Shown piece after piece: positions 1,260 to 62,777 of a DNA stretch of 62,777 nt. The first letter of the stretch is position 1, and the number at the start of each line of letters is the position of its first letter. Under the pieces are notes generated by a model. That model saw nothing but the letters and a program-made list of their open reading frames with translations, had not been told where the DNA came from and searched no databases. Source of the stretch: a virus. Taxonomy: Duplodnaviria; Caudoviricetes. The stretch spans positions 1 to 62,777 of the IMG/VR virus record IMGVR_UViG_3300022413_000011. One strand, written 5' to 3'. Position numbers and translations under genes: made by a program.

Positions 1260-1262
1260 ATC

Positions 1263-2976: not shown

Positions 2977-3004
2977 TTTCCTACATAGGAAGAAAGGACG
3001 AGTC

Positions 3005-3424: not shown

Positions 3425-3488
3425 TGTATTTGTACCACGCGGGCTAAAAAGCCCCGTGTAGAGCCCCTGGTGGGGTCACGGAGGACGT

Positions 3489-6832: not shown

Positions 6833-6843
6833 CAGGAGGAAAC

Positions 6844-7083: not shown

Positions 7084-7086
7084 ACA

Positions 7087-47910: not shown

Positions 47911-47992
47911 ACATTTTTTCCGGAAAAATCTGGAAAAATCTGGAAAAATGTGGATTTTTCCGGAAAAATCTGGAAAAATCCACATTTTTCCG
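47911..47992. repeat. 10-bp-phased GGAAAAAT array with nested palindromes
   Basis: 20-bp inverted repeat 47942-47961/47972-47991; 18-bp palindrome 47953-47970. Confidence 0.92.
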
Positions 47993-48000
47993 GCGAATCC

Positions 48001-48029: not shown

Positions 48030-48070
48030 GCTGCATAGTGCTGCACGAAACGATAAAAATAGGAGGGGTT

Positions 48071-48445
48071 ATGAGTATGAGACCGTCAGTAAACCTAAAC
48101 ACACCAGAATTGGTGGAAATGTTTGAGGTTGTAGCAGAGAGGGTTAGAAGATTTCATCCAAAGGCCAGTGACTCAGATGTGTTTATCCTGATATTGGTGG
48201 ACAAGTACAACTACTACACAGATCCACATCCAAAAAAGGAAAGCGAGTCAAGTCTGGCCAGAATAGAGAATATGCTGAAGGTTCTGCTAGACGAAAAGGG
48301 CGTGGAGTACATCCCCCCATACAAAGACATGGATTTTTCCGACTGTGACAATCCATATATCGAAGAGATGAGTTTGTCCGATGCCCTTGATGTTTTCCAT
48401 ACCGTAAGGGATGCGATAGGCAATAATAGCACATCCCAAATTTGA
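48071..48445 (+). CDS. Hypothetical protein, possible DNA-binding regulator
   Basis: AGGAGG RBS; beta-helix-helix-like N-terminus. Confidence 0.65.
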   Translation: MSMRPSVNLNTPELVEMFEVVAERVRRFHPKASDSDVFILILVDKYNYYTDPHPKKESESSLARIENMLKVLLDEKGVEYIPPYKDMDFSDCDNPYIEEMSLSDALDVFHTVRDAIGNNSTSQI

Positions 48446-48470
48446 CATTCGCCCAAATGTACGGTATGAT
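48442..48470 (+). promoter_or_regulatory. Sigma70-type promoter
   Basis: TTGACA-17 bp-TATGAT. Confidence 0.8.
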
Positions 48471-48496
48471 AATCACATGGACAGAAAGGAGGCAGT

Positions 48497-50041: not shown

Positions 50042-50510
50042 CATCCAAAGAATGCCAGAAGTCGATGAGGGGGTAACCAAGTCCTGGTCGTACAAAGCTG
50101 TGTTTCTGGGCAACCTAGCTGCCCTGATTGTCGTCATCATCGTGACCCTCGCTGGGATTGTCGCATACGTCCACTGGATTCTAGGAGAAACTGCTGGTAT
50201 AATTACGGCAATTGGATTCATCCTGGTTGCAGTCATGATTCTCATCCTGTTTCTGCATGACAGAAGTCAGGAGCGACACGTGGCACACCTGATGGGCACC
50301 GTGCAGGTTGCCCTACGGCACATTGGCCCCGCGATGAGAACGGACCTGGAGGAACAGGCCAAGACACACTGGGGTGGGGTACGGCAGGAGCAGAGATACT
50401 TTACAAACAGCGCACTCCTAGAAAAGCAGACGGATGAACGCCTGCGCGCCTCGCAGGAAAAGGTGGGACACCAGTTCAGTGCGCCACCGGAAGGATGGGA
50501 AGACGAATGA
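50025..50510 (+). CDS. Two-TM membrane protein coupled to the FtsK-like gene
   Basis: Two hydrophobic helices; overlapping start. Confidence 0.75.
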   Translation: MSMEYDIQRMPEVDEGVTKSWSYKAVFLGNLAALIVVIIVTLAGIVAYVHWILGETAGIITAIGFILVAVMILILFLHDRSQERHVAHLMGTVQVALRHIGPAMRTDLEEQAKTHWGGVRQEQRYFTNSALLEKQTDERLRASQEKVGHQFSAPPEGWEDE

Positions 50511-50872
50511 GGAGACTCACGAAAGATGGACGGACGCAGAGCATAACGAAATGGGCCAAGGAATTAGGTATATCTAGCCCCACGATATACAGAAGGTTGG
50601 ATCGTGGGGATACGGACGAAAGAGCACTGAGACCCGTTAGGGAGAAACTTGACAAACCTGACGCGTACGATGAGATAATCAGAATCTATCTCGACGCCCA
50701 AACCACTCCATCCATTAGACAGGTGGCCGACGAGATGGAGATGCCCGTCTCCACCATCGGGGACAGAATCCAGGAAATGGTGAAAAAGGGTCTGCTGAAA
50801 AAGGGCTCTGGGTCTCACAAGAACCTTTATGTTCCACAGGAGGGAGACAACAATGGGCCTCAACAAGCATGA
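50507..50872 (+). CDS. Double HTH protein (C-terminal LexA-N-like winged helix)
   Basis: WAKELGISSPTIYRRL; TPSIRQVADEM...STIGDRIQEMVKKGLL. Confidence 0.75.
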   Translation: MRRLTKDGRTQSITKWAKELGISSPTIYRRLDRGDTDERALRPVREKLDKPDAYDEIIRIYLDAQTTPSIRQVADEMEMPVSTIGDRIQEMVKKGLLKKGSGSHKNLYVPQEGDNNGPQQA

Positions 50873-51392
50873 GCAGATGCAGTTGTTTAGCAACGTTTCA
50901 ACTGAAACCAGGGAAAAAGCCCTGACAGACTACCCAGAATTGGCTTCTATAATTTTGGCCGCGAAGTCTCCCAATGGGAAACAGAATGGTCCTCACAAGC
51001 ACAATGCTGCCAGGACAGAGGTCGATGGGGTGAAGTATGACTCAACTGGTGAGAAGGACCGTCACTATGTCTTGATGCAGTGGCAGGAGACTGGCATTAT
51101 ATCCGGTCTAAAGCTGAAACCGACCCTGGTCGTTCAGGAGAAGTTCTCCTACAGAGGAAAAAAGTTTCAGCAAATAACGTGGACCCCGGATTTTAGGTAC
51201 TACGATAAAGAGTATGGCGTGTGGGTGTTTGAGGACTGGAAGAGAATGGACAAGAAGACTGGCAAGGCTTACATGACAGAGGATTTCAAGGTGAAAATCA
51301 AGATTGTGTTGTTCCGTTACCCAGACAATCACTTTTTCATTAACTGCCATCCGTACGGGAGGTACTCAGGGTCCCTGTACAGCACTGATTGA
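50853..51392 (+). CDS. DUF1064-family PD-(D/E)xK nuclease-like protein
   Basis: HKHNA...VDGVKYDS.GE, WTPDFRY, EDWK. Confidence 0.75.
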   Translation: MGLNKHEQMQLFSNVSTETREKALTDYPELASIILAAKSPNGKQNGPHKHNAARTEVDGVKYDSTGEKDRHYVLMQWQETGIISGLKLKPTLVVQEKFSYRGKKFQQITWTPDFRYYDKEYGVWVFEDWKRMDKKTGKAYMTEDFKVKIKIVLFRYPDNHFFINCHPYGRYSGSLYSTD

Positions 51393-51519: not shown

Positions 51520-51978
51520 TTAGACGGTAATTGAGAAATCCATTGGCTCCCAATCGCCATCCTCCCCGAGAAAGAAGCTCCGTAGACCCTCCTCGTCTAG
51601 TTCCACATCGTCATTTATGGTGTAGAACGGGGGGTTCCATCTAAGCATGTAGTACCCCTCATAATGTTCACCATCTGGGTCCCCCTTGCGCAGTATGGCG
51701 TCCATTACCCCGAACGTCATTGCCTTAGAGCGACCCAGGACAGAGCCTCCGGTCTTTATTTCAACCAGGGATATTTTTCCCAGGGGGTCCCCATTGGCAA
51801 GACTTCCGTATCTTCTCACGACGAGGTCCAGGTCTTCCAGGACCATACCCTCGCCCCCCGTTGGTAAGTTCTCCCTGGCCCAATCTCTCCAGGGTAACTG
51901 CTGATATAAATCCGGTCTATCGAACACTGGTTTACTCATAAAAACACTCTGTTTCCTGTTAGAATACATTCCGGGCAA
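51520..51978 (-). CDS. PD-(D/E)xK-like protein
   Basis: DLDLV...LVEIKT; start may be 51939. Confidence 0.5.
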   Translation of the reverse strand: MPGMYSNRKQSVFMSKPVFDRPDLYQQLPWRDWARENLPTGGEGMVLEDLDLVVRRYGSLANGDPLGKISLVEIKTGGSVLGRSKAMTFGVMDAILRKGDPDGEHYEGYYMLRWNPPFYTINDDVELDEEGLRSFFLGEDGDWEPMDFSITV

Positions 51979-51984
51979 AATAAA

Positions 51985-52260
51985 TTACCCCTCAGATGCC
52001 TTTTTTATGGCATTCTCTACCCATTCTGGGATTATGGACCGTGATCCACCTTTTTTTGGTTTTCCATACAGTCTGTGCGCCACCCTTCTGGCAGTGGACG
52101 TTGACTGTATGCTGGTTCCTTCAACTATCTCCCGGTAGGTGGGACCCCTGAAATGGGAGCCCCACCACCAGTCCACACAATCAGTTAATTCCCGTTCATA
52201 CTCCAGATTGTTCTTCCTCGACATCGAAAAATCCCTCTTCAAACATTCCTCGGGTGACAA
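51985..52260 (-). CDS. LexA N-terminal-like HTH protein
   Basis: GPTYREIVEGTSIQSTSTARRVAHRL; start uncertain. Confidence 0.6.
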   Translation of the reverse strand: MSPEECLKRDFSMSRKNNLEYERELTDCVDWWWGSHFRGPTYREIVEGTSIQSTSTARRVAHRLYGKPKKGGSRSIIPEWVENAIKKASEG

Positions 52261-52789
52261 GTTTTCTCAGGTTTCTCTTGTTATTCAACCAATCCTTAGC
52301 CCTGAAGCTAAGTTGGTATGTCCCACTGTTCCCCACAACCCACCCGGCCTTGTGTAGGTTTCTCATCCCCCTGGATGCCTCTTCCCCGTTTGACTCCAGC
52401 CCTATGGCAACGCTATTTACGTCCCATGAAACGTTGTTTGTATCTCTCGGATACACATCCCCTATTAACCACCTCAAGCACTTCCAGGGTGCCGTCTCCT
52501 TGCCCCTCCATGTATTACCAGGTAGCTCGAGTGGTTTGAGAACCATCTGGGGTTTCTCTTCCTCACTCTTCTCTGGAATATCCTTAACTGCGTGCCCAGA
52601 GGATGTCTCCACGTTGTCAGGCATACTGTCTGGCCCGAGGTCCCCTTCCATCTCCAGAACTTGCACAAGGCACTCTAGCACCTGCCCACCGAGTTCACGG
52701 TTCGACGGATAGCAGTAGTGAGTCTTTGAGTATCTCTTTTTCAGTGCTTCATACACAACGTCCGGTATGGAAACCGTTGCAATTTTCAT
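52196..52789 (-). CDS. Putative DNA-binding protein (RHH-like N-terminus, winged-helix-like C-terminus)
   Basis: ATVSIPDVVYEALKKR; GAAAGGA RBS. Confidence 0.6.
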   Translation of the reverse strand: MKIATVSIPDVVYEALKKRYSKTHYCYPSNRELGGQVLECLVQVLEMEGDLGPDSMPDNVETSSGHAVKDIPEKSEEEKPQMVLKPLELPGNTWRGKETAPWKCLRWLIGDVYPRDTNNVSWDVNSVAIGLESNGEEASRGMRNLHKAGWVVGNSGTYQLSFRAKDWLNNKRNLRKLVTRGMFEEGFFDVEEEQSGV

Positions 52790-53026
52790 TCAAGTGTCCT
52801 TTCTTGACCTTTTGGGTAATATTGAGTATTATGCTCATACGCGCGCGGCTCCCTCCAGGAGTCGCATATGAAAAATCCTCGTCACAGACATTCTCTCAGG
52901 AGAGAGAGAAATCGTAAGGGCAAGAAGTTTTCAAAGGCGTACCTCAAAACAGTAACCAAGAACCACCAGTAAGAATTTAGCCTAACCTAACACAAGTCAC
53001 TAGACCACCACACAGAGCCGCGCGCG

Positions 53027-53977
53027 TCAATCCACCTTCACAATCTTCGGTTTGTATATTTCGTGCTGTAAACCCCTCTGGTGAGAGGAGACCCACACGG
53101 TTTTCCCATTACTCAGGGTTCTCGTGTGTCCAGCCACGTCGAACCGGAACGACACATGCCTCCCTGTGTTTCTCCTGCCCTCGCTGGGTGCATATCTGTT
53201 CTTGTTCCACTTGCAGATATAGTAATCAGGCAATTCTCGTTTGCCCTTCCGTCGCCTTTTTCTGTTTATATCATGATGGCTGGTTCTCTCCAGTTCCATG
53301 CCAGAAGAATTCATGTAAACAATACATAGCTGGGCTAAGTTTACAATTCTCTGCTTGTCCATCCTGCCAGTTTCAGTTCCCCCGGTGCTGGGATCGTAAT
53401 GAACCTCGCCCCTTTTATTCATATAGGCGATTGCCCGATTATGAGCCGTGCTACCGTAATAGGCAGACACAGAAAAAGCACGGTTAGACTCAAGTTCACC
53501 TTCATCTGGAAACCCTATAACCAATCCTGCGACCACATCATCCGTTTCTTCGTCTATCTTATGGATTGTATCAACACCAAGAATCCTTGCTGCCTCTTTA
53601 GGTGAAATCTCTCCTGGAGATGGTGGGCCAGGGTCAACCAGGAACTCACTCTGGGGAATGGCCTCCGTGAACTGGATTACCATGTATCTAAATGGTATAT
53701 CGTATGACCCGGGAACAATCGGCCTGTCCACGACCCTGAGAAACTCTGTGATTTGCTCAGTCGAAAACAGGACTGTCTGCGCACTTGAACAAATGTGCGC
53801 ATTCACGATTATGTCCACCAGGTCTGCCAGACTTCCTCTCTCGTCCTCTGGAACAAGAAGCATGGCATCGGGAGATAAAATGTTGCTTGCCGTAACTCCG
53901 TATTGAGAAAAATGTTTAAAACCTGCTGACCCAGCCTTTACTGCCAAAGCCAGGATTTCGTCCTTTATGAGCCTCAT
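53027..53977 (-). CDS. Phage hypothetical protein with basic C-terminal VxGHxR motif
   Basis: INRKRRRKGK...FDVAGHTR...VWVSSHQRG; AGGGGAGG RBS. Confidence 0.75.
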   Translation of the reverse strand: MRLIKDEILALAVKAGSAGFKHFSQYGVTASNILSPDAMLLVPEDERGSLADLVDIIVNAHICSSAQTVLFSTEQITEFLRVVDRPIVPGSYDIPFRYMVIQFTEAIPQSEFLVDPGPPSPGEISPKEAARILGVDTIHKIDEETDDVVAGLVIGFPDEGELESNRAFSVSAYYGSTAHNRAIAYMNKRGEVHYDPSTGGTETGRMDKQRIVNLAQLCIVYMNSSGMELERTSHHDINRKRRRKGKRELPDYYICKWNKNRYAPSEGRRNTGRHVSFRFDVAGHTRTLSNGKTVWVSSHQRGLQHEIYKPKIVKVD

Positions 53978-53987
53978 TCTCCTCCCC

Positions 53988-54623
53988 TTAAGGTGTGCAT
54001 CGCCCTGGATAGACACACGGATTTTCCAGAGCCATTTTGTTTGGTAAGAATGGGAAATATATCAGGTTCGCGATGTACTTGTCCTCTGGCTCCGTTTCTC
54101 CTCCTACAGACGGCCACTGAAACACACCGTACACGTTCCCCTGAGACTCTATGCAGTATGGGCCAGAGTTCTGCGCATAAAAGACGAACTCAAACGTATT
54201 TGCCTCTCCAGTCAGGTCACTTAGCACCTGACCGTTACATGGGGTTATATAAAGGGCTTCCCCTGGGTTGTGCGCCAACACAACTCCTCTCACAACGGTG
54301 TGGCCGATGATACCCACCTCAGAATCCACAATATTGTGGATTCTGTGTATCTTCTCAAGCTTTGGGATGTTCACGTTGCAATTTTCTGAGCAACTCCACG
54401 CCGCGCGACTATCTTTCGATAGTGGGACCCCTACTCTCACGGAGTCTTCTTGCTGGGTGTAATGGTAATATACCCCATCCTCGCATGACTCACCGACACA
54501 CGTGAGAGAGACAGACGGCAGGCTGGAATCCTCGATTCCACTCGCTCTTACGCTAGGCAGGAAAACTGTAAAATGTAGCAGGAAAACTGTAAAACACAAG
54601 AAAAATCTCATACCAAACTCCAT
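53988..54623 (-). CDS. Secreted Cys-rich protein with C-terminal IYFPFL motif
   Basis: Signal peptide (VRA-S); LIYFPFLPN. Confidence 0.7.
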   Translation of the reverse strand: MEFGMRFFLCFTVFLLHFTVFLPSVRASGIEDSSLPSVSLTCVGESCEDGVYYHYTQQEDSVRVGVPLSKDSRAAWSCSENCNVNIPKLEKIHRIHNIVDSEVGIIGHTVVRGVVLAHNPGEALYITPCNGQVLSDLTGEANTFEFVFYAQNSGPYCIESQGNVYGVFQWPSVGGETEPEDKYIANLIYFPFLPNKMALENPCVYPGRCTP

Positions 54624-54637
54624 TTGCTACACCGACA

Positions 54638-54874
54638 CTATGTAATTGTTACTCCGCGTACGACCTCTGACGAATACCGGACAATCCTGATTTTTTCGAT
54701 TCCATGAGTTTCGCACGCGACTTGGTATAATTTACTCGCCCTGTCTTCAGTGAACTTCGTGATGCCCCCATCCACCTCTGGAAGTGCTTGCCAGTAGGGT
54801 TCTTCACCCACACCATCGGTCCATAGATGAATTTCGTAGTAGGTGCCAATGGCGCGCGCGTTAATCCTCATCAA
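54638..54874 (-). CDS. Hypothetical protein
   Basis: Coupled ORF. Confidence 0.6.
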   Translation of the reverse strand: MMRINARAIGTYYEIHLWTDGVGEEPYWQALPEVDGGITKFTEDRASKLYQVACETHGIEKIRIVRYSSEVVRGVTIT

Positions 54875-55166
54875 TCATTTCCCCTAAAAATATTCTAACC
54901 TTTTCCTGGATAAGATCCAGATTGTCCACAACCCCACCTTTCCCCAACTGGTATCCTGCTGCAAATAGTGCCCTTTCCTCAAAGGTTGAACTATCGCTCA
55001 TGTACTCTTCTACATAGGCGATTATCTTTTGTAGATCCGTTATCAAGATGGAGTACCATCTGTCGATGGGCTTCCTTTCCAGGGTCCTGTGTGACTTGGC
55101 CACAGAAAGGGCTTCTCTAAGGTGATGCAAAAGTTGCTCGTCATAGTGGTCTTTTTCTGTATACAA
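54861..55166 (-). CDS. Hypothetical protein
   Basis: AGGAGG RBS before TTG. Confidence 0.65.
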   Translation of the reverse strand: MYTEKDHYDEQLLHHLREALSVAKSHRTLERKPIDRWYSILITDLQKIIAYVEEYMSDSSTFEERALFAAGYQLGKGGVVDNLDLIQEKVRIFLGEMIDED

Positions 55167-55176
55167 GGTAAGCCTC

Positions 55177-55926
55177 CTAGTTAAAAATCATGGACAACCA
55201 CACCCAGAACATTCCTTCTGGCTCCTCATTCTCGGGTAGCGACAGGGCGCATTCCTGGCTGTCTATACACGGAGTCGGTGTGGGGGTCGAGATGACAACC
55301 GTCACCTCTGGCATCGGTGTGTCTGGCTCACTCACCGTGGTGGGGATAATGGTTGTGACCGTCACGGCAGGAACTCGCGTGCTTGTTGGCGTTGGGGTTT
55401 CTGTTGGAGATGGACCCGTGGTTGGCGTTTCTAGGGGAACCACGTAGTCGAGTGCATAAAAGCTCTCGGTTCCCCTCCAGCAAAAGTCCCCCTCGTAGGG
55501 GGCTGTGAAAAATCCATACCACGTGAGTGTCACAGGCACATCTAGCAGGGAGACATCATTTGTGCAATCCGTAATAGATTCCGTCCGGTCAGCACGGTCC
55601 CTGTCTAAACCCAGTAGCAATACAGTCTGGCTTTGCTTTAGATACGCCAGGGGTGCCACTGTGGTGGCTGGCAGCATGGTTACCAGGGGGATGTCGCTGT
55701 CACAGTCCCCACCATCGCATCTCCAGCATTCCACGGTCTGGGCATCACTCTCTTCTGTTGGTCTTGCAATAACGGCTCTACGGAACTTCACGAAGTAATT
55801 ACCATCGAGGTTACCACACTGCTCCTGACCACTGCCTATATGGGTCAGGATGGGGAAGTTGCTCTGCGACAACACCGTCACAGGGGTGGCCAAAAGAACT
55901 AAAATGGCCACAATTAGTTGTCTCAC
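55177..55926 (-). CDS. Secreted protein with Pro/Thr linker and C-terminal VWLSMI motif
   Basis: Signal peptide; TPTTGPSPTETPTPT; FWVWLSMIFN. Confidence 0.8.
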   Translation of the reverse strand: MRQLIVAILVLLATPVTVLSQSNFPILTHIGSGQEQCGNLDGNYFVKFRRAVIARPTEESDAQTVECWRCDGGDCDSDIPLVTMLPATTVAPLAYLKQSQTVLLLGLDRDRADRTESITDCTNDVSLLDVPVTLTWYGFFTAPYEGDFCWRGTESFYALDYVVPLETPTTGPSPTETPTPTSTRVPAVTVTTIIPTTVSEPDTPMPEVTVVISTPTPTPCIDSQECALSLPENEEPEGMFWVWLSMIFN

Positions 55927-56033
55927 GACTCTGTGTCCTTTCCTTCACTTCGTGCGCCAACAATCACGGCACACACAAATACAAACGACGAACATATTGC
56001 AAAAAAGAGGAACAGGCATAACAGGAACTCCAA
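55923..56033 (-). CDS. 36-aa single-TM peptide
   Basis: AAAGGA RBS, TTG start, GTGA overlap with the next gene. Confidence 0.5.
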   Translation of the reverse strand: MEFLLCLFLFFAICSSFVFVCAVIVGARSEGKDTES

Positions 56034-56159
56034 TGCCTATCCTTTATCCACCACACCGTCTATCTGCTGGCTCGTTCAGTGAGCACCACACAGAAGGATG
56101 AGCAGAAATGCTTTTCAAAGCTCCCTCATGGCCCGAATAGCTGTCTCAAATGCAGTAGA

Positions 56160-56264
56160 TTATCCACCTCTCTTATGTTCCCACACGACCACGGCAAACA
56201 GAATGACCAGGGAAACAAATGCCAGCAAAAAAGCTACGATGTCTTGCCTATCTAAGAGCGACAT
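56160..56264 (-). CDS. 34-aa single-TM peptide
   Basis: MSLLDRQDIVAFLLAFVSLVILFAVVVWEHKRGG. Confidence 0.45.
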   Translation of the reverse strand: MSLLDRQDIVAFLLAFVSLVILFAVVVWEHKRGG

Positions 56265-56346
56265 GGGGGAAGTCGCTTGGACCCAGCAAGGTCAGCAGAA
56301 AATAGAGGAAAATCACGGAAACAACAAACAGAATAAACGACCTCAT
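56248..56346 (-). CDS. 32-aa single-TM peptide
   Basis: ATGA overlap; MRSFILFVVSVIFLYFLLTLLGPSDFPHVALR. Confidence 0.5.
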   Translation of the reverse strand: MRSFILFVVSVIFLYFLLTLLGPSDFPHVALR

Positions 56347-56477
56347 TCTATGACATCCTCGAGAATGTTTTTCCTCTTGATTCGTTTCGCTTCCATGAGT
56401 CCCAACCTCACCCCCACCCCTACCAGCAGGATGGTGCTAACTAGTGAGAATGAAATCACGACCAATATGTCTCTCAT
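56343..56477 (-). CDS. 44-aa single-TM peptide
   Basis: GGGGTG RBS; MRDILVVISFSLVSTILLVGVGVRLG. Confidence 0.55.
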   Translation of the reverse strand: MRDILVVISFSLVSTILLVGVGVRLGLMEAKRIKRKNILEDVIE

Positions 56478-56511
56478 GTCACCCCACCACGTTCTTGTCA
56501 GGAACGTTTTT

Positions 56512-57138
56512 CTATAAAAGGTCAGCACTAATAAGCATCGAAACAAACTCCTCCTTGTTTCGAGGGGCGAACGAGGCCATCAGGCAGGACACGAACGTGC
56601 CCAGGGGAATAGAATGACCATTTCTGAAGGTGGAATTTATCGCAACCTGACTCGCGTCCCCGTCCCCCGTCGCTTTCGATTTCGCTACTGTGGATATTGC
56701 AAAAGGCACATCCAGTTCGACAAGCTGCCTGTGCGCTTCTTCCACAACTCTTCGCACCTTCTCGACCGTTTCCTCATCCCCGTATTCCGGCCTATCCGAC
56801 ATGAGGGAATTTCTGAGATTCCCGGGTCTTCCATTCGCCATGTCTATCACGAAATGGATAAACTCGTGCGGTAGCTCCATCAAAGCGCACATTGCCTCGA
56901 TCAAGCATGAGCCATCTTCCTTACGGGACACCTGGGACACCACGCTGTCATCTAGTTCGACCGTGGCCATCACGGTAACCCCATTTTCACTGGCAACACG
57001 GAGGGCTTCCCCCAGTAAATCCAGAACCATCTGCTGATGGGGGTTAATCCCTTTATCATCACCTTGTTCAGACGGTGGCTCCCCACCACTTCTGAGGAAT
57101 TCCTCTATCTCTGAGCACAACTCTTTTTGTTTTTCCAT
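56512..57138 (-). CDS. Hypothetical protein, possibly two similar halves
   Basis: ATG 57138 after AAGGAG. Confidence 0.7.
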   Translation of the reverse strand: MEKQKELCSEIEEFLRSGGEPPSEQGDDKGINPHQQMVLDLLGEALRVASENGVTVMATVELDDSVVSQVSRKEDGSCLIEAMCALMELPHEFIHFVIDMANGRPGNLRNSLMSDRPEYGDEETVEKVRRVVEEAHRQLVELDVPFAISTVAKSKATGDGDASQVAINSTFRNGHSIPLGTFVSCLMASFAPRNKEEFVSMLISADLL

Positions 57139-57185
57139 GTATCTCCTTATCGCTCCTGCTATGATTATTAAATCCGGCAATACTT

Positions 57186-57214
57186 ATTGTACACTGATTG
57201 TGGGATTTTTGCAA
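57186..57214 (-). promoter_or_regulatory. Sigma70-type promoter (leftward)
   Basis: TTGCAA-17 bp-TACAAT on the minus strand. Confidence 0.7.
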
Positions 57215-57302
57215 GAGCTATAGCCCTTCAGGGGTGATTGTAGCACATATTATCTGAAAAATCAATCGGTACGAAACAGGATGAGTCTGCCAGTATCGTA
57301 AT

Positions 57303-57343
57303 TTGTCACTTATTAAATAATATGATATACTATTATTTAATAA
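57303..57343 (+). promoter_or_regulatory. Promoter overlapped by a 13-8-13 inverted repeat
   Basis: TTGTCA-17 bp-TATACT; TTATTAAATAATA-TGATATAC-TATTATTTAATAA. Confidence 0.75.
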
Positions 57344-57360
57344 TCACATGGGAGAGAGAC

Positions 57361-57798
57361 ATGAAGTACGCAACAACATTTAGTATGGACAAGGAAGTGG
57401 TGGACCTGCTGGCAGAGATGGCAGGGTCGCGCAGAAAGATGGGTAAGCTCCTGGGAACCCTCATTATGCAGGAGGCGTGCAGGAGGGGGTTAGAGGAATC
57501 CCAAGATGGCGTGTTTCAGTCTGAAGTGCTCTCTGAAATCACGGATGGGGTATTTGGGAATGAGTTCCTCGAGATTGTCCCGATGATTCACGGGACTGCT
57601 CACGTGAGGATAACCAAGAATGTTCTTAATGGCCCAGAAGTGGGTCTGGTACTGTCATCTCTGTACCTGTTGCACGTTGCCCTTTCTGTGACGAGGTATG
57701 AGAGTGTTGTGTTGAGCCAAGGGGATGACACGGTTCCGGGGTTAGCAGAGGCGATTCGTATGGCAATTAGAGCGAGTGAAATACTTGGAAAGGAGTAG
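57361..57798 (+). CDS. Ribbon-helix-helix-like regulator
   Basis: ATTFSMDKEVVDLLAEMA...MGKLLGTLIMQEA; GGAG RBS. Confidence 0.6.
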   Translation: MKYATTFSMDKEVVDLLAEMAGSRRKMGKLLGTLIMQEACRRGLEESQDGVFQSEVLSEITDGVFGNEFLEIVPMIHGTAHVRITKNVLNGPEVGLVLSSLYLLHVALSVTRYESVVLSQGDDTVPGLAEAIRMAIRASEILGKE

Positions 57799-57803
57799 GA
57801 GCG

Positions 57804-58112
57804 ATGAAGGTGATGAAAGCAATAGTGTGGGTGAAAGATGGAGAAGCAACGTTTCTGGATGCCAAGAGCCCTGACGACATCCAGTTGGAAACAATCGACA
57901 TGCTTGGTGGTCATTTCCCCCTGACAGACCTTTTCTCTAGGTCTGACGACATTGAGCAGGTGCAGGATTTCGTGGGCACGTTGCAAAACGGGCTACACGA
58001 GATAGGCATCATGACGAGGCGACTGGAATTTGCCGAAATCGACATAAAACCAGTCTACTGTGTGGGTTCTCGAATCATATCAAATTTAGTCCTATATTTA
58101 CACACAGGATAA
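57804..58112 (+). CDS. Hypothetical protein
   Basis: AAGGAG RBS. Confidence 0.7.
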   Translation: MKVMKAIVWVKDGEATFLDAKSPDDIQLETIDMLGGHFPLTDLFSRSDDIEQVQDFVGTLQNGLHEIGIMTRRLEFAEIDIKPVYCVGSRIISNLVLYLHTG

Positions 58113-58123
58113 GGAGGGTAGCA

Positions 58124-59089
58124 ATGAACAAAATCACACTGACGGACAGCGTGTACCCTGTTGGAGCCGACTTGGGAAACGGTTTTGTTAACCTATACAT
58201 GCAGGACCGACACGCTGGCCTACCGGCTGGATACATGCTCGAGAAACCCACAGGCCCATACGACCCCAAGCGCATGTCATACAAATCCCCAAAGGCGCAA
58301 GAGATTGTCGTCAACGATAAAACCGTATGGGTTGGCCGCGATACTCTCACTGACAAGATGGTGAGATACCTGGACGACACAAAGTACGACAAAGAGCATC
58401 TTCGTATCCTGTTCAGTGCAGGGTTGGCAGAATGGCTTTCCCTGACGAAGGCAAGCACCGAAGAAACGCTACGTCTACGCGTGGCATGTGGGATGCCAGC
58501 CGAAAAGTTCCAGGACCCCAAGAACCGCGCGCTTGCCGAGAAAGCGTACAAGGCTGCTTTTAAGGTGACTAACTCGGACCAGTGGCGCATCACGGTCGGT
58601 GGCAAAAGGATACGTCTGCTGACCGAGTTTGCTGGACTCAGACCCGAGACCGTTGGGTACGCTTGCGTAAGCAAGTTGCACAAAGGGTACACGGTGTTGA
58701 TGGACTGTGGTGCGGGAACCGTCGATGTGTGTGTGTTCCATAGCTCCCAACAGAAAACCCCCATAACTGTAAAATCCTTCAACATAGGGCTCATACACGC
58801 GTTTGACGACATCAACCCCATGCAGATGGACCTACCAGAACTCCTTCTGATTCGTAAGGAGATTGATCCATCGGTACTTAACCCGTACGTGGCGCAAATC
58901 AAGACGCTGACCACAAAGTTCTGTCGCAGGCTCGAAGTGAAGGGGCAGGAAATCAGGGTAAAAATTATTGGGGGCTTGCCTCACCTGATGAGCAAGGAGC
59001 AGCGCGCGTCTCTCTCAATGGGGATACCAGTCGTGTTTGGTGATGCTGGAGAAAACGCGCGGGCGTTTGCTAACTACGCTGGAGAGTAG
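58124..59089 (+). CDS. parM: Actin-like partition ATPase (ParM/StbA family)
   Basis: Phosphate-1 GADLGNGFVN, connect ACGMP and RPET, phosphate-2 MDCGAGTVD, adenosine IIGG. Confidence 0.85.
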   Translation: MNKITLTDSVYPVGADLGNGFVNLYMQDRHAGLPAGYMLEKPTGPYDPKRMSYKSPKAQEIVVNDKTVWVGRDTLTDKMVRYLDDTKYDKEHLRILFSAGLAEWLSLTKASTEETLRLRVACGMPAEKFQDPKNRALAEKAYKAAFKVTNSDQWRITVGGKRIRLLTEFAGLRPETVGYACVSKLHKGYTVLMDCGAGTVDVCVFHSSQQKTPITVKSFNIGLIHAFDDINPMQMDLPELLLIRKEIDPSVLNPYVAQIKTLTTKFCRRLEVKGQEIRVKIIGGLPHLMSKEQRASLSMGIPVVFGDAGENARAFANYAGE

Positions 59090-59097
59090 GGGTCCTG

Positions 59098-59155
59098 TCC
59101 CTAAATCCGTCGAAAATGGGATGGGTGCATCCCTAAATCCGTCAAGAACGGGATG
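59098..59155. repeat. Two 26-bp direct repeats between parM and the downstream gene
   Basis: TCCCTAAATCCGTCGAAAATGGGATG / TCCCTAAATCCGTCAAGAACGGGATG, period 32. Confidence 0.85.
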
Positions 59156-59159
59156 AAAA

Positions 59160-59435
59160 ATGGAAATCAGGTTCAGATTAGATGCCGTGGTAGATGTAAA
59201 ATTTTTGGAGAAATTCTCTCCCCTGGTGAACGCTGGTGCTTCACAGGGGGACGCGTTCCGCGCGTCTCTGCAACAACTACTACTAGAGGCAGAGAGGGGT
59301 GGCGTGATACTGGCCCTGTCCAGTCAGCCCCCAATGGTCAACAACTACGCCACACCGAGCACCAGCATGGGGAAGGCTGTGGAGACAGACTCCGACCCAT
59401 TTGATGTGGATTTTGACGATATTGTAATCAGTTAA
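59160..59435 (+). CDS. Putative ParR-like adaptor
   Basis: Small gene after parM; EIRFRLD beta-strand, helices, acidic disordered tail. Confidence 0.55.
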   Translation: MEIRFRLDAVVDVKFLEKFSPLVNAGASQGDAFRASLQQLLLEAERGGVILALSSQPPMVNNYATPSTSMGKAVETDSDPFDVDFDDIVIS

Positions 59436-59451
59436 AAACAAAGGAGACACT

Positions 59452-59886
59452 ATGAATGCACTGAGAACCTTAATCGTGGTTATGACATTTTTCATAATCA
59501 TTGGCGTTAGTGGGGCTGGAGCCCAAGGAAACCAGGGGGTCAATTTCGACCTCTGCCCACTAATCAATGACGTTGTCTTCTGCCCCTTTGATGAGTTTGG
59601 GCATGTTTACTGGGAACCTGCCGATGAGCCCGGAAATCCAGTCGTCAAACCTTGTGGCTTGAACGGCTGCTATTACGTCCTCCCGTCGTGTGGCACAATC
59701 GGGTGCCAGGTGGAATACAAGGCATGGGGTGGCAACAGTAAGGGCGAACTCAAGGAGTGGGCCGTCTCCATCTTTGTTGGGTTCGAAGGGGTGGCGCAAT
59801 ATCACCCAATCGCTGTCCCCGACCAGGGGTTGAGAACCTTCCTTCCAGCAGTCAAAAATCAGCCAGAACCAATTTTCACACCGTAG
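59452..59886 (+). CDS. Secreted Cys-rich protein with C-terminal TFLPAV motif
   Basis: Signal peptide (AGA-Q); LRTFLPAVKNQ; AAGGAG RBS. Confidence 0.8.
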   Translation: MNALRTLIVVMTFFIIIGVSGAGAQGNQGVNFDLCPLINDVVFCPFDEFGHVYWEPADEPGNPVVKPCGLNGCYYVLPSCGTIGCQVEYKAWGGNSKGELKEWAVSIFVGFEGVAQYHPIAVPDQGLRTFLPAVKNQPEPIFTP

Positions 59887-59893
59887 TCGTTCT

Positions 59894-59977
59894 GAGGGCA
59901 TAGCTCAATGGGAGAGCGACACTGAGGTTGGGTCCCTCTGTACTGTGTAGATGTGGGTTCGATTCCTACTGCCCTCG
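59894..59977 (+). tRNA. tRNA-like element with an enlarged anticodon arm (identity undetermined)
   Basis: Acceptor GAGGGCA/TGCCCTC, D-arm TAGCTCAATGGGAGAGC, T-arm GTGGG-TTCGATT-CCTAC; no encoded CCA. Confidence 0.7.
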
Positions 59978-59992
59978 TTTTAAGGAGACATC

Positions 59993-60325
59993 ATGATAAA
60001 AGTTTTACTGACAGCCCTGTTCCTGCTTATCTCCCTGCTCGCGTACGTGTCCTCCGTGGCCATAGAGAGTCACAACAGGGCCTACGTGGACGTGGAGGTG
60101 AGCAAGCAGGTCACCCAACAAACAGGCATCGAATGGGATGGCAGGGTTAGAATAGCCGAAATCGAGGCAAGTAGGGACGTAAGTGTTGCCGAGATACACA
60201 GGGACGAGGTTGTTTGGTCTAGCTGGGCCTGGAACGTGGGCAGCGTTATCCGTGGCCTCCTATGGGTTCTGGCCACGGTCGCCTGCCTGTACCTAATCCT
60301 GCTATATTCCAGGACATTCTCGTAG
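59993..60325 (+). CDS. Membrane protein (N- and C-terminal TM)
   Basis: AAGGAG RBS; two hydrophobic segments. Confidence 0.7.
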   Translation: MIKVLLTALFLLISLLAYVSSVAIESHNRAYVDVEVSKQVTQQTGIEWDGRVRIAEIEASRDVSVAEIHRDEVVWSSWAWNVGSVIRGLLWVLATVACLYLILLYSRTFS

Positions 60326-60338
60326 GGGGTCAGCGCAC

Positions 60339-60791
60339 ATGGACAAACAGGGACCAGAGTGGGGCTACACCCCCAAACCGTTCGAATTCCACGGTAGGAT
60401 GATGTACAAGAAGTGCTGGTTCTGCGCAACCTGGACGGACCCCGAAATAGAGCATGTTCTTAGCCATGTGCCCCCCGAAGGGCTCCAGGAGTGGATTTGT
60501 GGAGACTGTAAGGAGGGACTGGCCACTAAAAAGGCCAACTCAAAGGAAAGGAGGAGAGAACTCATAAGGATGCTCAAGGACGGACCCCTGACCGTCTCGG
60601 AGGCAGCAGAGGAACTCGGCGTCGTCTGGGCTATGGCAAACAGGGACATGGTCTCCCTGTGTGAACATAAATTCGCCAAGGAAACGGAAGTAAACGGCAA
60701 AAAAGCCGTGGAATTACGTGAGATAGACGGAAATATTGAAGAAATGCTCGAAAAGTACGAAGAAACCATTAGAAAACGCCGCGAGGCGTGA
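60339..60791 (+). CDS. Zn-finger plus winged-helix protein
   Basis: CWFC...CGDC; GPLTVSEAAEELGV. Confidence 0.7.
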   Translation: MDKQGPEWGYTPKPFEFHGRMMYKKCWFCATWTDPEIEHVLSHVPPEGLQEWICGDCKEGLATKKANSKERRRELIRMLKDGPLTVSEAAEELGVVWAMANRDMVSLCEHKFAKETEVNGKKAVELREIDGNIEEMLEKYEETIRKRREA

Positions 60792-60801
60792 AAGGACACT
60801 T

Positions 60802-61539
60802 ATGGAACACCTTCTAACAGGATTCGACATCGAAATAGCCACAAAACTGCCCGATGGCAAGCGCGATTGGACCATCTACTCCCCCGGAGTGACCTGCGCA
60901 GTCACAATGGACCACGAAAGCGTGCTGAAGAACAGAGACCCGGGAGTCTGGTACGGGACTGGCAAACACGGGGTAACAGCAGCGCAAATGAGCCCCGTCG
61001 AGGTCCGAAACTTGATGGATTGCATCATTGACTCGGCTGTGGGCCAGACAGCAAGCCGAAAAATCGTAACATGGAACGGTCTGTCCTTCGACTTCCCTGT
61101 GTTACTCAAGGAGGCTGGCAGATACGGTGATGAGATAGCCGACACCTGGAAACATATCGCCATTGCGCACCATATCGACCTGATGTATATGGTCGTATCA
61201 AAGGCTGGCCACTATCTGGCCCTGGACAAAGCCCTGAAGGGGGCTGGACTCGAGGGAAAAACGCCAGGAGTGGATGGAGCACTGGCACCGGAGATGTGGA
61301 AGGAAGGGAAATACGCCGAGGTAATCGAATACTGCGTCCAGGATGTTAAGCAAACCCTCCTGCTAGCCGATTGGGTCAACAAAAACAAGAAAATCGCCTG
61401 GACATCGGGCGCAGGGAACCTAACAGGCGTCCAGTTCCCTAACGGACTCCTGACCGTCTACGAGTGCATGAGCATACGTGGCCCAGATGAACCCCTGGTG
61501 GACCGAACCGCGGCCATGCGCTGGATGGAGGAAATATAA
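60802..61539 (+). CDS. RNase H-like 3'-5' exonuclease (DEDD family)
   Basis: FDIE, WNGLSFDFP, HIDL, YCVQDV. Confidence 0.85.
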   Translation: MEHLLTGFDIEIATKLPDGKRDWTIYSPGVTCAVTMDHESVLKNRDPGVWYGTGKHGVTAAQMSPVEVRNLMDCIIDSAVGQTASRKIVTWNGLSFDFPVLLKEAGRYGDEIADTWKHIAIAHHIDLMYMVVSKAGHYLALDKALKGAGLEGKTPGVDGALAPEMWKEGKYAEVIEYCVQDVKQTLLLADWVNKNKKIAWTSGAGNLTGVQFPNGLLTVYECMSIRGPDEPLVDRTAAMRWMEEI

Positions 61540-61886
61540 TGGCCCACGAAAACCTGATGGACGCAAAATTCAAGAACATGCTGAAAGGGCACGACGACGG
61601 ATACCTTTACGCTGTAGTCGAGAACGGAGCACTCACGGTACACCCAGTCGTGTGGGATGTGCCAGAAGGCACCATCCCCCGTGAGTTACTCCTGGTGGCC
61701 TACCAGTTGGACCTGATGAGAGAAGAGGAGTCCCTATCCTGGGAACGGAGCGAGGAAGGACTGGGCGTACGCTGGCACGATGAAAACAAATTCGTGCTCC
61801 TGGAGAATGTTGGAATTAGCAAGGAAATAGGATTTTATGTGAAGCCCCTGTTCCCAAATGAGGAGGACATATCCAAGGGCTACTAA
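61539..61886 (+). CDS. Hypothetical protein
   Basis: TAATG coupling, GGAGG RBS. Confidence 0.7.
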   Translation: MAHENLMDAKFKNMLKGHDDGYLYAVVENGALTVHPVVWDVPEGTIPRELLLVAYQLDLMREEESLSWERSEEGLGVRWHDENKFVLLENVGISKEIGFYVKPLFPNEEDISKGY

Positions 61887-61930: not shown

Positions 61931-62086
61931 TGCCAATGTTTGTTCTCCGTAGCCCCACTTTCTCCTGTCGCAATTTAATGGGGTTCCGTGGCATGGCATT
62001 CTGATTTCTCCTTTAGGGTAATGTTGGTAGGATTATAGTTGATAGCAAAAGGGCCAGATCCATATGGATCTGGCCCTTTTGTTTTT
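61931..62086 (+). ncRNA. Candidate ~155-nt small RNA with three UUCUCC motifs
   Basis: Promoter-to-terminator unit with no credible plus-strand ORF. Confidence 0.45.
62046..62086. terminator. Perfect 36-bp palindrome, likely bidirectional terminator
   Basis: CAAAAGGGCCAGATCCAT-ATGGATCTGGCCCTTTTG then a T-run. Confidence 0.8.
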
Positions 62087-62218
62087 CACTAGAACCCATC
62101 ATGCACCCGGATATACTGGTCGCTTATTCCCAGTATTCCAGAAACCCATCATATATCATGACAATGGACCAGTCAACCCCCCTGGCGATTCCCTGCGTAC
62201 CGAAACATGACTTGACCG

Positions 62219-62340
62219 TAAAACACCCCTAAACATCCCACTAAAACATGACTAAAACACCCCTAAACATCCCTAAATAAATCCTAAACCCTAAAACCCC
62301 ATAATCTGCCCCCACTCGACTGAAAAACACCCCCTAAACT
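62219..62340. repeat. CCTAAA-rich repeat cluster
   Basis: TAAAACACCCCTAAACATCCC at 62219 and 62253; further CCTAAA copies up to 62338. Confidence 0.8.
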
Positions 62341-62777
62341 TATTTAGGAGTTCTTAAAATATGCCAATTCCTACGAAAAATCCTGAAATTGGGTCGCGCA
62401 CACCCCCGCGTCACTCACACATACCTACACGTGCTACACACGCACACCTACGCTCCCCACACACATGGGGAGACATGCCCACGTGATACACACGCAGACA
62501 TGGGTAACGCACATACAGGTAACACGTAGGTATACACACCCAAGCACAACCTGCCAACACGAACACATACGGGACACCCCCCTACTGCCCTCGCGTACGC
62601 ACGTAGGGGCACGCGCGCCCGTTGATATGAGGAAGGAATAGGGATGAGAGGGAGAAAGGGGAATGAACGAAGGGAGAAAGGGAGAATGGGGAGTTTGTAA
62701 TTGTGGGGGGATGCCCTCCTCTGCTGGATGGCTCCCCAAATCTCGAGCACCACCCCCCCCCACCCTAGCCCATTCGT

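Follow-up and report, generated by a model that had tools for sequence, protein, structure and literature searches.

What does a tailed phage do with an actin-like partition cassette, and does carrying one mean that its prophage is kept as a plasmid? The question is raised by IMGVR_UViG_3300022413_000011, the 62,777-bp record of an uncultured tailed phage of sediment origin, which we analyzed over its whole length (hereafter the window). A preliminary description of this DNA had proposed an actin-based partition module and, with it, a phage-plasmid. We consider it fairly probable that this locus represents a DNA-positioning cassette of the ParMRC type (type II-like). The first half of the earlier proposal, a type II-like set of motor, repeats and small gene, therefore stands, whereas its plasmid step goes further than an incomplete record supports. 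Coordinates of the features are given in Table 1.

Table 1. Features of the cassette and its surroundings (positions in the window)
Feature	Positions	Strand	Evidence
Divergent control region between a leftward gene (56512-57138) and the operon	57139..57360	.	Promoter scan, inverted repeat
145-aa orphan protein, first gene of the operon; candidate RHH regulator, alternatively adaptor	57361..57798	+	Weak RHH_1
102-aa protein, no assigned function	57804..58112	+	Coding score 0.140
ParM-like actin-fold ATPase (ALP), motor, 321 aa	58124..59089	+	ALP_N, motifs, AF2, Foldseek, VIA-align
Two 26-bp direct repeats, candidate adaptor-binding site (operator and/or minimal centromere)	59098-59123, 59130-59155	+	Repeat search; binding proposed
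91-aa orphan protein, candidate adaptor	59160..59435	+	Position, coding score, sequence pattern
Remainder of the same operon: 144-aa, tRNA, 110-aa, 150-aa, exonuclease-like, 115-aa	59452..61886	+	ORF list, Pfam, PHROGs
144-aa protein with signal-peptide-like start; 110-aa membrane protein; 150-aa HTH protein; 115-aa protein	within 59452..61886	+	
tRNA, within the operon	59893-59978		
PolB-exonuclease-like protein	60802-61539	+	Family scans
GC-rich palindrome followed by a T-run, probable operon terminator	62030..62097	+	Inverted repeat; terminator reading proposed
CTAAA-core array, candidate second binding site or centromere	62219..62345	+	TRF, k-mer sharing; function proposed

On sequence and predicted structure, we are certain that the 321-aa protein is an intact ParM-like actin-fold ATPase belonging to a rare, divergent clade, as the preliminary description had recognized from its actin motifs. 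The protein matched Pfam ALP_N (PF17989) at E 3.9e-7 and 30.8 bits (cut-off 26.3) over residues 14-159, phrog_691 'partition protein' at E 3.4e-9, and the NCBIfam ParM model PRK13917 at E 4.4e-8, the last far under that model's equivalog cut-off. Across an alignment of 29 family sequences, E175, D194, G196, T199, D201 and G284 were invariant and D16, G18, N19, G198 and G283 were conserved in at least 90%. These residues represent the phosphate 1 (DxGxG), phosphate 2 (DxGxGTxD) and adenosine (GG) motifs, together with the acidic residue of the catalytic region; the motif names reportedly go back to Bork et al. in 1992.

The AF2 model of the motor reached a pLDDT of 93.6 and a pTM of 0.91, and its best Foldseek match was pSK41 ParM (E 3.3e-16). 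VIA-align placed ParM-type ALPs, Ta0583, Alp7A and CorM (rank 8) at ranks 1-12, with Z values from 24.2 to 19.6 over 265-286 aligned residues (Dh-cParM1 24.2, pCBH ParM 22.7, Alp7A 22.1, R1 ParM 21.2), and the first MreB followed at rank 13 with a Z of 19.6. The modeled fold is nearer to the solved ParM-type proteins than to MreB, FtsA or Hsp70. A closed beta-barrel subdomain is said to set ParMs apart within the actin superfamily, according to the available part of PMC12270681. Sequence identity to solved ParMs was 12-20% in Foldseek and VIA-align, and a profile of the family searched against PDB sequences retrieved Bt ParM at 3.7e-9 and R1 ParM at about 2e-5; 'Toxin A' rows in the same search were weak partial matches and were taken as spurious. 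The clade has 40 representatives among 1.84 billion. A tblastn search with the motor gave no match in 50,697 phage or 72,556 plasmid records, and related loci, sought with the ALP, the family alignments and the queries P0005, P0007, P0009 and P0014, were found in none of the viral, metagenome and genome contigs. A 279-aa ORF on the - strand (58075-58914) that overlaps the ALP was rejected as a gene on codon usage.

A small gene directly after the motor gene is the canonical ParM-ParR order in the accessible text of PMC8026635 and PMC6669507, and we found the same order in phage B83 (ParM, then a ParG-like protein) and in an unrelated IMG/VR record (an ALP, then a 75-aa ORF). Here, the 91-aa ORF begins 70 bp downstream of the motor gene and has a coding score of 0.227 per codon (training mean 0.183), with all five other frames negative; an 83-aa alternative frame at 59153 was discarded on codon usage. 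Its product shows a strand-helix-helix pattern in the N-terminal 50 residues, then a low-complexity linker and an acidic-hydrophobic C-terminal tail (DSDPFDVDFDDIVIS). The single-sequence AF2 model was of low confidence (pLDDT 45.5), with helices at residues 13-24 and 30-46 and the remainder unstructured, and the Atlas model was equally poor, its leads all scoring <0.9. The protein had no family in Pfam, PHROGs or NCBIfam and no homologue, although its linker and tail aligned weakly with the ParG-like adaptor of B83 in BLASTP (E 0.048 for one comparison). Against PDB sequences, both the 91-aa and the 145-aa proteins gave chance-level matches only. Position and sequence pattern are what the adaptor assignment draws on, because neither small protein has a recognizable DNA-binding family or homologue. 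Of the ParR-like gene described earlier, the ORF, its good coding score and its adaptor position are thus retained, but the ParR-like label is unproven.

The gap between the two genes is filled by the two 26-bp repeats, which are 32 bp apart and identical at 23 of 26 positions. This observation of the preliminary description was upheld: two matches to the repeat pattern, which was itself derived from the data, occurred in 0 of 100 shuffles. Each repeat starts with (CA/TG)TCCCTAAAT and finishes with GGGATG, and the second overlaps the ribosome-binding region of the 91-aa gene. The idea that the repeats form an RNA element or a terminator was rejected (fold z -1.61, a stability matched by 12 of 200 shuffles, and no U-tract). 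Repeats and a small downstream gene lie where an adaptor and its binding site would be expected, and the cassette reading is supported by this analogy.

The fold, the nucleotide motifs and the motor-then-small-gene order are shared with R1 ParMRC, pSK41, pCBH, pBMB67, Alp7AR and AlfAB. The carrier here is a phage, the candidate adaptor has no detectable ParR or RHH match, and its repeats are found between the motor and the small gene as well as 3.1 kb downstream, not upstream around the promoter as in the plasmid type II systems. The repeats at 59.1 kb number only two, fewer than in characterized centromeres, which counts against the cassette reading; parC of R1 has about ten iterons, short units phased at about one helical turn.

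The distal array resembles the parC iterons in this respect. Its CTAAA units lie at 62229, 62241, 62252, 62263, 62273, 62284, 62291 and 62334, with spacings of 12, 11, 11, 10, 11, 7 and 43 bp and a G content of 3% across the array, and TRF reported a period of 11 with 5.4 copies at 62219-62277 (score 58). Nowhere else in the window do at least four CTAAA units fall within 120 bp, and here the number reaches 8. CCCTAAA occurred 15 times in the window against 5.6 expected, a count reached in 0 of 100 shuffles. The preliminary description had tied the two sites together through an 11-mer, CATCCCTAAAT, which does recur exactly at 59128 and 62268, within a real CCTAAA cluster; however, with at most one mismatch allowed, at least two matches appeared in 26 of 100 shuffles, so that the recurrence taken alone is within chance. 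The two sites have the TCCCTAAAT core in common, and the 59.1-kb repeat window was the single best locus in the window for 7-9-mers shared with the array. Taken singly, the 26-bp repeats ranked in the top 0.1-0.5% of windows for shared 7-mers, and were equalled by 9 and 33 other loci. The par locus is not alone in having a phased array: an A-tract array with 10-bp phasing lies at 47919-47993 and is unconnected with par. Judging from the sequence, the 62.2-kb array is less likely to be a replication origin, a role for which it is not needed because a candidate origin of 15-bp iterons (3.9 copies, 2104-2162) lies within the initiator gene.

A mechanism in which an adaptor sits on the repeats and a filament moves the phage DNA is likely. 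The 91-aa product would be the adaptor, and its dimers would bind the pair of 26-bp repeats that immediately precedes its start codon, by which it may also throttle its own expression. It would probably bind the approximately 11-bp-phased CTAAA array as well, through the shared core. The acidic-hydrophobic tail of the adaptor could then capture the ends of ATP-driven ALP filaments, whose growth would push phage genome copies apart. Two sites 3.1 kb apart have a parallel in N15, which has several dispersed centromere sites.

The record holds only part of the phage genome. The record is classed as linear and about 81% complete, and an 80,458-bp contig carries proteins identical to those of this phage; about 17.7 kb of that version are absent from the 62,777-bp record. 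At the left end, the primase ORF is open-ended, its first in-frame start codon lying at base 23, and the first and last 3 kb share no terminal overlap reaching 12 nt. Scans for exact 26-mers gave 0 matches among viral and metagenome contigs, a set from which near-identical records may be left out. The region was present in three sediment-metagenome DNA runs, with no RNA run listed as holding it. The Logan contigs of these three runs were near-identical and all short, none extending over more than about 1.2 kb of the stretch, and some bins lacked cover in X2 and X3; no joints were listed among them and no loose end was seen at the right end of the window.

Within the window, a virion and packaging module is present (TerL, TerS, portal, a 1981-aa tape measure, Sipho_Gp37 and tail fibres), with no sheath family among 29 ORFs scanned, and replication functions comprise an initiator (phrog_4707, 1.4e-24), DnaB, primase, clamp and SSB. 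The replication and par genes lie on one strand and the virion genes on the opposite strand. The phage had been described as having no integrase. This holds for the window, where PF00589, PF00239 and PF07508 gave 0 tyrosine or serine recombinase matches in six frames of the 62,777 bp and Pfam and PHROG scans of 65 ORFs gave no integrase, but it cannot be extended to the whole genome: because the record is linear, 81% complete and open at the primase, and identical proteins occur on the 80,458-bp contig, an integrase, Xer or protelomerase could sit in the unseen 17.7 kb. The 65 ORFs included no member of a ParA, ParB or protelomerase family, and Pfam, PHROGs and PADLOC identified no repressor, lysogeny module or addiction system.

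As one form of the preferred cassette reading, the phage may be a low-copy, non-integrated plasmid prophage partitioned by the cassette, with an operator at 59.1 kb and a centromere at 62.2 kb, an idea we hold as possible but tentative. Besides the missing recombinases, it is favored by the phage having its own initiator with internal iterons and the other replication genes, and by the putative RHH-like autoregulator at the head of the operon, which is plasmid-like although its family match is weak. The preliminary description had called actin-like partition unusual for plasmid prophages, a view that is outdated: the accounts available in PMC8026635, PMC11526630 and PMC6669507 describe a ParM-like protein with an RHH adaptor in the Bacillus siphoviruses IEBH, B83, phiS58 and others, and in PMC11526630 such systems mark the experimentally confirmed plasmid prophages IEBH, Bp8p-C and B83. 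Like IEBH, vB_BtS_B83 and phiS58, the present phage combines a siphovirus-type genome, an actin-like motor followed by an adaptor-sized gene, and repeats of the kind proposed there as a centromere; like the Bacillus plasmid prophages, it has its own replication initiator and its virion genes on the opposite strand, and in B83 the replication and ParM genes likewise run opposite to most others (PMC6669507, as far as its text was available).

The likeness to these phages is nevertheless distant. Alignment of the motor family profile with B83 ParM by hhalign gave a probability of 61% over 35 columns, a remote match; the motor has 321 aa here against 413 aa in B83, and the gap to the small gene is 70 bp with repeats against 12 bp. 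No Xer recombinase was seen within the 62,777 bp, and the cassette is embedded in an operon of nine genes, the first of which is a second RHH-like gene (a weak match), both in contrast to the Bacillus plasmid prophages. With N15 and P1 the phage would share the concept of a prophage as a low-copy replicon kept by an active partition system, but their motor is a Walker-type ParA/SopA (type I) and the one here is actin-like. Against a plasmid prophage stand the unseen part of the genome, the lack of an identified repressor, lysogeny module or addiction system, and the place of the cassette within an early or replication-type operon with a tRNA. Moreover, partition genes alone do not prove a plasmid stage, in the available part of PMC8026635; a case in point there and in PMC4446434 is AlpAC, the ParM-like system of the integrated prophage CGP3.

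The cassette may instead serve, as AlpAC does, to tether or transport replicating genomes only during replication after infection or induction, in a phage that is virulent or integrates by means of a gene in the missing part; we regard this second form of the cassette reading as only slightly less probable than the first. In CGP3, according to the available text of PMC4446434, AlpC and AlpA are induced early, bind repeats in the promoter region and are required for efficient replication, even though CGP3 is an integrated prophage. The setting of the cassette is compatible with such a role. The ALP and the 91-aa gene, genes 3 and 4 of a nine-gene operon, lack a promoter and a terminator of their own, and a simple scan found no + strand terminator-like site inside the operon. 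The four cassette ORFs (145, 102, 321 and 91 aa) are tightly packed, with phage-like codon scores in their own frames only, and the ORF gaps in the remainder of the operon are at most 16 nt. The ALP is thereby co-oriented and apparently co-transcribed with the exonuclease and HTH genes and the tRNA, in a phage that encodes much of a replisome. A probable terminator closing the operon is suggested by the sequence of the 62030..62097 palindrome (34-nt arms, 82% complementary, TTTTGTTTTT after the stem), which is absent from the list of the simple terminator scan. The 102-aa protein had no family in Pfam, PHROGs, NCBIfam or PADLOC, and PADLOC found nothing in or beside the cassette. Embedding in a nine-gene operon with an exonuclease and a tRNA is unlike autonomous par operons and weighs against the cassette reading as a whole.

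Compared by layout, the locus shares with AlpAC-alpS a phage-borne ALP, a putative co-transcribed DNA-binding partner, short repeats and plausibly early expression; the RHH-like gene and promoter palindrome upstream of the motor echo the alpA-alpC order, and IMG/VR records classed as proviruses (G018) contain ALPs as well. In CGP3, however, which is integrated, the adaptor is encoded ahead of the motor and the promoter region contains 24 alpS repeats (PMC4446434 and PMC5539076, in the parts available), whereas upstream of the motor here are the weakly matched RHH-like gene and a palindrome with three copies of TTATTAAAT, far fewer than those 24 repeats. The canonical motor-then-small-gene order is present here too, the phased distal array resembles a centromere more than alpS, and no integrase occurs in the 78% of a presumed 80-kb genome that was covered.

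The control region allows a different wiring of the same parts. A promoter-like site, TTGTCA-17-TATACT, lies at 57303-57331 (+) with a scan score of 10/12 and a TG, and it is overlapped by a 13-bp inverted repeat (57310-57322 and 57331-57343, 100% complementary), which its sequence makes a candidate operator. TTATTAAAT has three exact copies in the window, at 57165, 57310 and 57335(-), all in this region. The first gene of the operon encodes the 145-aa protein (coding score 0.186), which had been called RHH-like: its position at the head is confirmed, but the RHH label is unproven, the match to RHH_1 being sub-threshold (E 0.11, 13 bits against a cut-off of 20.5, residues 5-25), and the protein has no homologue besides itself. 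Within the cassette reading, this protein would most likely autoregulate the operon through the palindrome over the promoter. Alternatively, it could itself be the adaptor, acting at that palindrome, while the 26-bp repeats provide only local operator or translational control of a 91-aa gene whose product has another role, and the 62.2-kb array is bent DNA or a site for another protein such as the 150-aa HTH protein. RHH_1 is the only family hint of the cassette and belongs to the 145-aa protein; the perfect inverted repeat, like parC in R1, overlaps the promoter; the second 26-bp repeat covers the ribosome-binding region; and the array at 47919-47993 is unrelated to par. A single palindrome, however, fits an operator and not a multi-site centromere, the 91-aa protein is the one in the adaptor position with an acidic tail that aligns weakly with that of the B83 adaptor, and the distal array shares the repeat core, so we judge this wiring unlikely.

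It is very unlikely that the ALP does not move DNA at all and forms a cytoskeletal or scaffolding filament (interfering with host cell shape or division, or supporting virion assembly) beside repeats of ordinary gene regulation: ParM-derived systems have been repurposed, as CorMR for cell shape in Anabaena (bioRxiv 10.1101/2025.06.27.661541), and chromosomal cParMs have no known segregation role (PMC12270681), but in the available parts of PMC8026635, PMC4446434 and PMC6669507 the characterized phage and plasmid ALPs with an adjacent small gene and repeats all act on DNA, and the repeats and distal array with the same core fit a DNA cargo.

The phage is a divergent addition to the ParM-like/small-adaptor phage systems already described. 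It raises no new question, such systems being in print for siphovirus plasmid prophages and for an integrated prophage. In its most far-reaching and, in our view, improbable form, the reading would make it a plasmid prophage of an unsampled sediment siphovirus lineage with a new ParM-like clade and a split centromere, in which an orphan adaptor reads both the 26-bp sites, doubling as its operator, and the CTAAA array; were this true, it would extend actin-type phage-plasmids beyond Bacillus and add a new centromere layout. Should the cassette function as suggested, it would offer a small and highly divergent ParM, together with its orphan adaptor and two candidate binding sites, all of them open to easy in vitro testing, and it would place actin-type segregation or positioning in phages well outside the cultured Bacillus and Corynebacterium examples.

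The ParM-like ATPase (ALP) that heads this analysis begins behind a good ribosome-binding site and scored 30.8 bits against Pfam ALP_N (gathering score 26.3). It also matched phrog_691 ("partition protein"), and the NCBIfam ParM model gave a weak match. When 1,835,955,588 representatives were searched in full with HMMER, only 40 proteins reached E <= 1e-3, 13 of them E <= 1e-30, and a word-index search gave two close relatives with 69% and 60% identity. The alignment comprised the window protein, one close relative (P0002) and, from the 40 HMMER matches, 27; 10 fragments shorter than 270 aa and three long multi-domain weak matches were left out. E175, D194, G196, T199, D201 and G284 were invariant, and D16, G18, N19, G198 and G283 were at least 90% conserved; together these residues make up the actin-fold signature (phosphate 1, phosphate 2 and adenosine). 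With an AF2 model built from this alignment (pLDDT 93.6, pTM 0.91), Foldseek retrieved pSK41 ParM first (E 3.3e-16), then Ta0583, Dh-cParM1, R1 ParM, Bt ParM and Alp7A. After re-ranking with VIA-align, rows 1-12 were all ParM-type (Z 24.2 to 19.6), with MreB from 19.6. The family profile also matched the PDB sequences of Bt ParM (3.7e-9) and R1 ParM (about 2e-5). Family matches, conserved signature, structural comparisons and profile matches therefore confirm the motor, which the preliminary description had recognized from its actin motifs.

Judged by sequence searches, the ALP clade is rare and remote from known phage ParMs. A tblastn search with ALP gave no match among either 50,697 phage records or 72,556 plasmid records, and among 20 ALP-family clusters examined, 18 were without a name and two were called "hypothetical protein". 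Several ALP-family clusters occur on phage-sized contigs (58.7 and 56.7 kb), and the Atlas neighbours of ALP were ParM/StbA clusters, several of them mostly viral. Actin-like proteins are therefore not rare in phages, contrary to what had been supposed.

Positions of gene blocks, cassette elements and repeats in the window
Feature	Position	Strand	Content
Replication block	23-10695	+	Primase, initiator, clamp, methyltransferase, DnaB, SSB
Replication initiator	1768-2976	+	phrog_4707 match
Virion and packaging block	10456-47879	-	Tail fibre, Sipho_Gp37, 1981-aa tape measure, portal, TerL, TerS
Short block	48038-51392	+	FtsK-like ATPase, HTH protein, DUF1064 resolvase-like protein
Block of unknowns	51520-57138	-	
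Divergent control region			222 bp, upstream of the 145-aa head gene
Promoter-like site	57303-57331		10/12, with TG
Operon with ALP	57361-61886	+	
145-aa head gene	57361-57798	+	First in operon
ALP	58124-59089	+	321 aa
26-bp direct repeats	59098-59123, 59130-59155		23/26 identical, 32 bp apart
91-aa ORF	59160-59435	+	Candidate adaptor gene
CTAAA cores	62229, 62241, 62252, 62263, 62273, 62284, 62291; one more at 62334		
Non-coding stretch			891 bp, after the operon, up to the right end of the window

The two 26-bp repeats reported between ALP and the small gene were located in the 70-bp gap 3' of ALP. Direct inspection of the sequence shows in them four half-sites of GGGATG/CATCCC type, alternating in orientation, and the second repeat reaches into the ribosome-binding region of the 91-aa ORF. 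The region folded as RNA no better than shuffles (z -1.61) and is without a U-tract; because of this, a candidate protein-binding DNA site is preferred.

The 91-aa ORF probably represents a genuine gene, because its codon-usage score (0.227 per codon) lies above the mean of 21 confident reference genes (0.183, minimum 0.125) and all five other frames are negative. For its description as ParR-like, no matching family was found. Homologue searches with the protein returned only itself, no Pfam, PHROG, NCBIfam or PADLOC family and no PDB sequence was matched, and Atlas scores stayed below 0.9, with RHH_1, RHH_6 and CcdA clusters at 0.81-0.83. A single-sequence AF2 model was poor (pLDDT 45.5), showing one short strand and two helices (13-24, 30-46), with the remainder unstructured; a ribbon-helix-helix head followed by a flexible tail would fit this model, but the model is not evidence for them. 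The linker and acidic tail (…SDPFDVDF…) aligned weakly with the C-terminus of the ParG-like adaptor of the plasmid prophage B83 (…SDKEEVDF) at E 0.048 in a single comparison.

The supposedly RHH-like gene does head the operon, but its 145-aa product is an orphan whose sole family hint is RHH_1 at E 0.11. In the divergent control region upstream, a perfect 13-bp inverted repeat overlaps the promoter-like site, and all three exact window copies of TTATTAAAT lie within the region. It looks like an operator set, which would probably serve the product of the head gene. One low-depth Logan contig from the sediment sequencing run X1 matches only the AT-rich promoter palindrome (57312-57344), diverging on both sides, and lacks one base each at 57326 and 57330; a different element with a common palindrome, or an assembly artefact, is the probable explanation.

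The ALP cassette is not an autonomous operon. Genes across 57361-61886 are separated by gaps of at most 16 nt except at the repeat gap and a tRNA, and no terminator-like site was found on the + strand within the operon. Apparently co-transcribed with it are, among others, the tRNA and the genes for an HTH protein, a PolB-exonuclease-like protein and two proteins of membrane or secreted type, and a palindrome with a T-run lies 3' of the operon (62030-62097). ARAGORN called the tRNA (59893-59978, 86 nt) as Pro with the unusual anticodon AGG, and the Rfam tRNA model gave it 52.4 bits across 84 nt; the gene exceeds a normal tRNA-Pro in length, and its identity is uncertain.

The core of the repeats after ALP had been described as recurring in a CCTAAA cluster near 62.2 kb. 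The 11-mer does recur exactly, but by itself this is not significant, with 26 of 100 shuffles giving at least two matches at no more than one mismatch, whereas the surrounding 62.2-kb site is significant. The first seven CTAAA cores are spaced 12, 11, 11, 10, 11 and 7 bp (TRF: period 11 x 5.4 copies), and this array has a G content of 3%; nowhere else in the window do four or more CTAAA fall within 120 bp. CCCTAAA occurs 15 times in the window against 5.6 ± 2.5 expected, a count reached in none of 100 shuffles, and 7 of the 15 are on the + strand inside the 59.1-kb and 62.2-kb sites. When every 58-bp window outside the right end was scanned for 7-, 8- and 9-mers common to 62200-62350, the 59.1-kb repeat window was the single best locus, its count being inflated because the repeat is duplicated there. 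Considered one at a time, the two repeats ranked within the top 0.13% and the top 0.5% of 26-bp windows, and 9 and 33 further loci scored as well as they did. Because the array is significant and the repeat window is the best 58-bp locus, but single repeats are matched elsewhere, the link between the two sites is suggestive, not proven. As a candidate origin, the 62.2-kb array is surpassed by tandem 15-bp iterons (CCAGATGTGGATAAC x 3.9, 2104-2162) inside the initiator gene, which also holds a second 15-bp array (x 2.7), both within 2104-2211; the inside of an initiator gene is the classical place for a phage origin.

The window is an entire IMG/VR virus record, and its genes are arranged in strand blocks. 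The primase ORF is open off the left end, where base 23 is the first in-frame start codon and no complete primase gene is present. The label "siphovirus" is reasonable because tape measure, Sipho_Gp37, portal and TerL/TerS are present and no sheath family was found among 29 ORFs scanned. The closest TerL relatives in the phage collection and IMG/VR were at most 29% identical, so the lineage is an isolated one. Near-identical sequence was present in three sediment-metagenome runs, one of which may come from the source sample.

Several further features were observed along these blocks. A perfect 48-bp tandem duplication (9687-9782; 2.0 copies, 100% matches) starts at the 3' end of the SSB gene. 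On the - strand, the virion block encodes two odd passengers for a structural module: one protein of 177 aa that has an EAD1 "effector-associated domain" (29835-30368, E 2e-11), and another of 823 aa that has a calcineurin-like phosphoesterase domain (30375-32846). Within a 612-aa structural-block gene (33885-35723, -), 63-bp tandem arrays at 34060-34227 and 34957-35150 (2.7 and 3.1 copies) imply repeated 21-residue units in its protein. The FtsK/SpoIIIE-like ATPase (48497-50041; PF01580 6.7e-16, phrog_1358 2e-38), which adjoins the packaging genes on the opposite strand, also weakly matched HerA, mad8 and SspH models. Where the small terminase gene and the 48038 gene diverge, the gap holds an A-tract array phased at 10 bp (GGAAAAATCT x 5.9, 47919-47993), a candidate for a pac site, bent DNA or a control region. 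At the right end, about 390 bp of strongly strand-asymmetric low-complexity non-coding DNA (62390-62777) passes from CA-rich repeats into AGGGAGAA x 6.5 and ends in a C-run; contigs from all three runs cover this stretch, which may be the reason assembly stopped there.

The claimed lack of an integrase holds for the window, since no integrase, resolvase or large serine recombinase was found in six frames of its 62,777 bp; ParA, ParB and protelomerase families were likewise not found in its ORF scans. However, the window is classed as linear with a CheckV completeness of 81%, its ends share no overlap of at least 12 nt, and an 80,458-bp contig on record, carrying proteins identical to ALP and to the 91-aa and 145-aa proteins, is about 17.7 kb longer.

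ParM-like proteins with RHH adaptors are described in PMC11526630 and PMC6669507 for the plasmid prophages IEBH, Bp8p-C and B83. B83 has its ParG-like gene 12 bp downstream of the ParM gene, and in an hhalign comparison the ALP family aligned with B83 ParM over only 35 columns around phosphate 2 (probability 61%). Among 37 distant TerL relatives, one record (G018) had an ALP_N gene. This unrelated, AT-rich record of 72,708 bp is a 100% complete provirus by the IMG/VR classification, and a search of it detected no tyrosine integrase; at 1474-2589 of L040, a stretch of this record, the ALP_N gene (291 aa) is followed 12 bp downstream by a 75-aa ORF with an RHH-like start. PMC8026635 cautions that having partition genes is not in itself proof of a plasmid stage, and cites AlpAC of the integrated prophage CGP3.

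The kind of system is thus already known, and the window cassette is a divergent version with unusual repeat placement. The original observation is confirmed in part: the actin-based cassette is real, and the adaptor and centromere assignments stay plausible inferences. We consider it fairly probable that the cassette acts in a DNA-positioning mechanism; within this mechanism, partition of a plasmid prophage and, with slightly less weight, a role in the replication phase can each be suggested tentatively.
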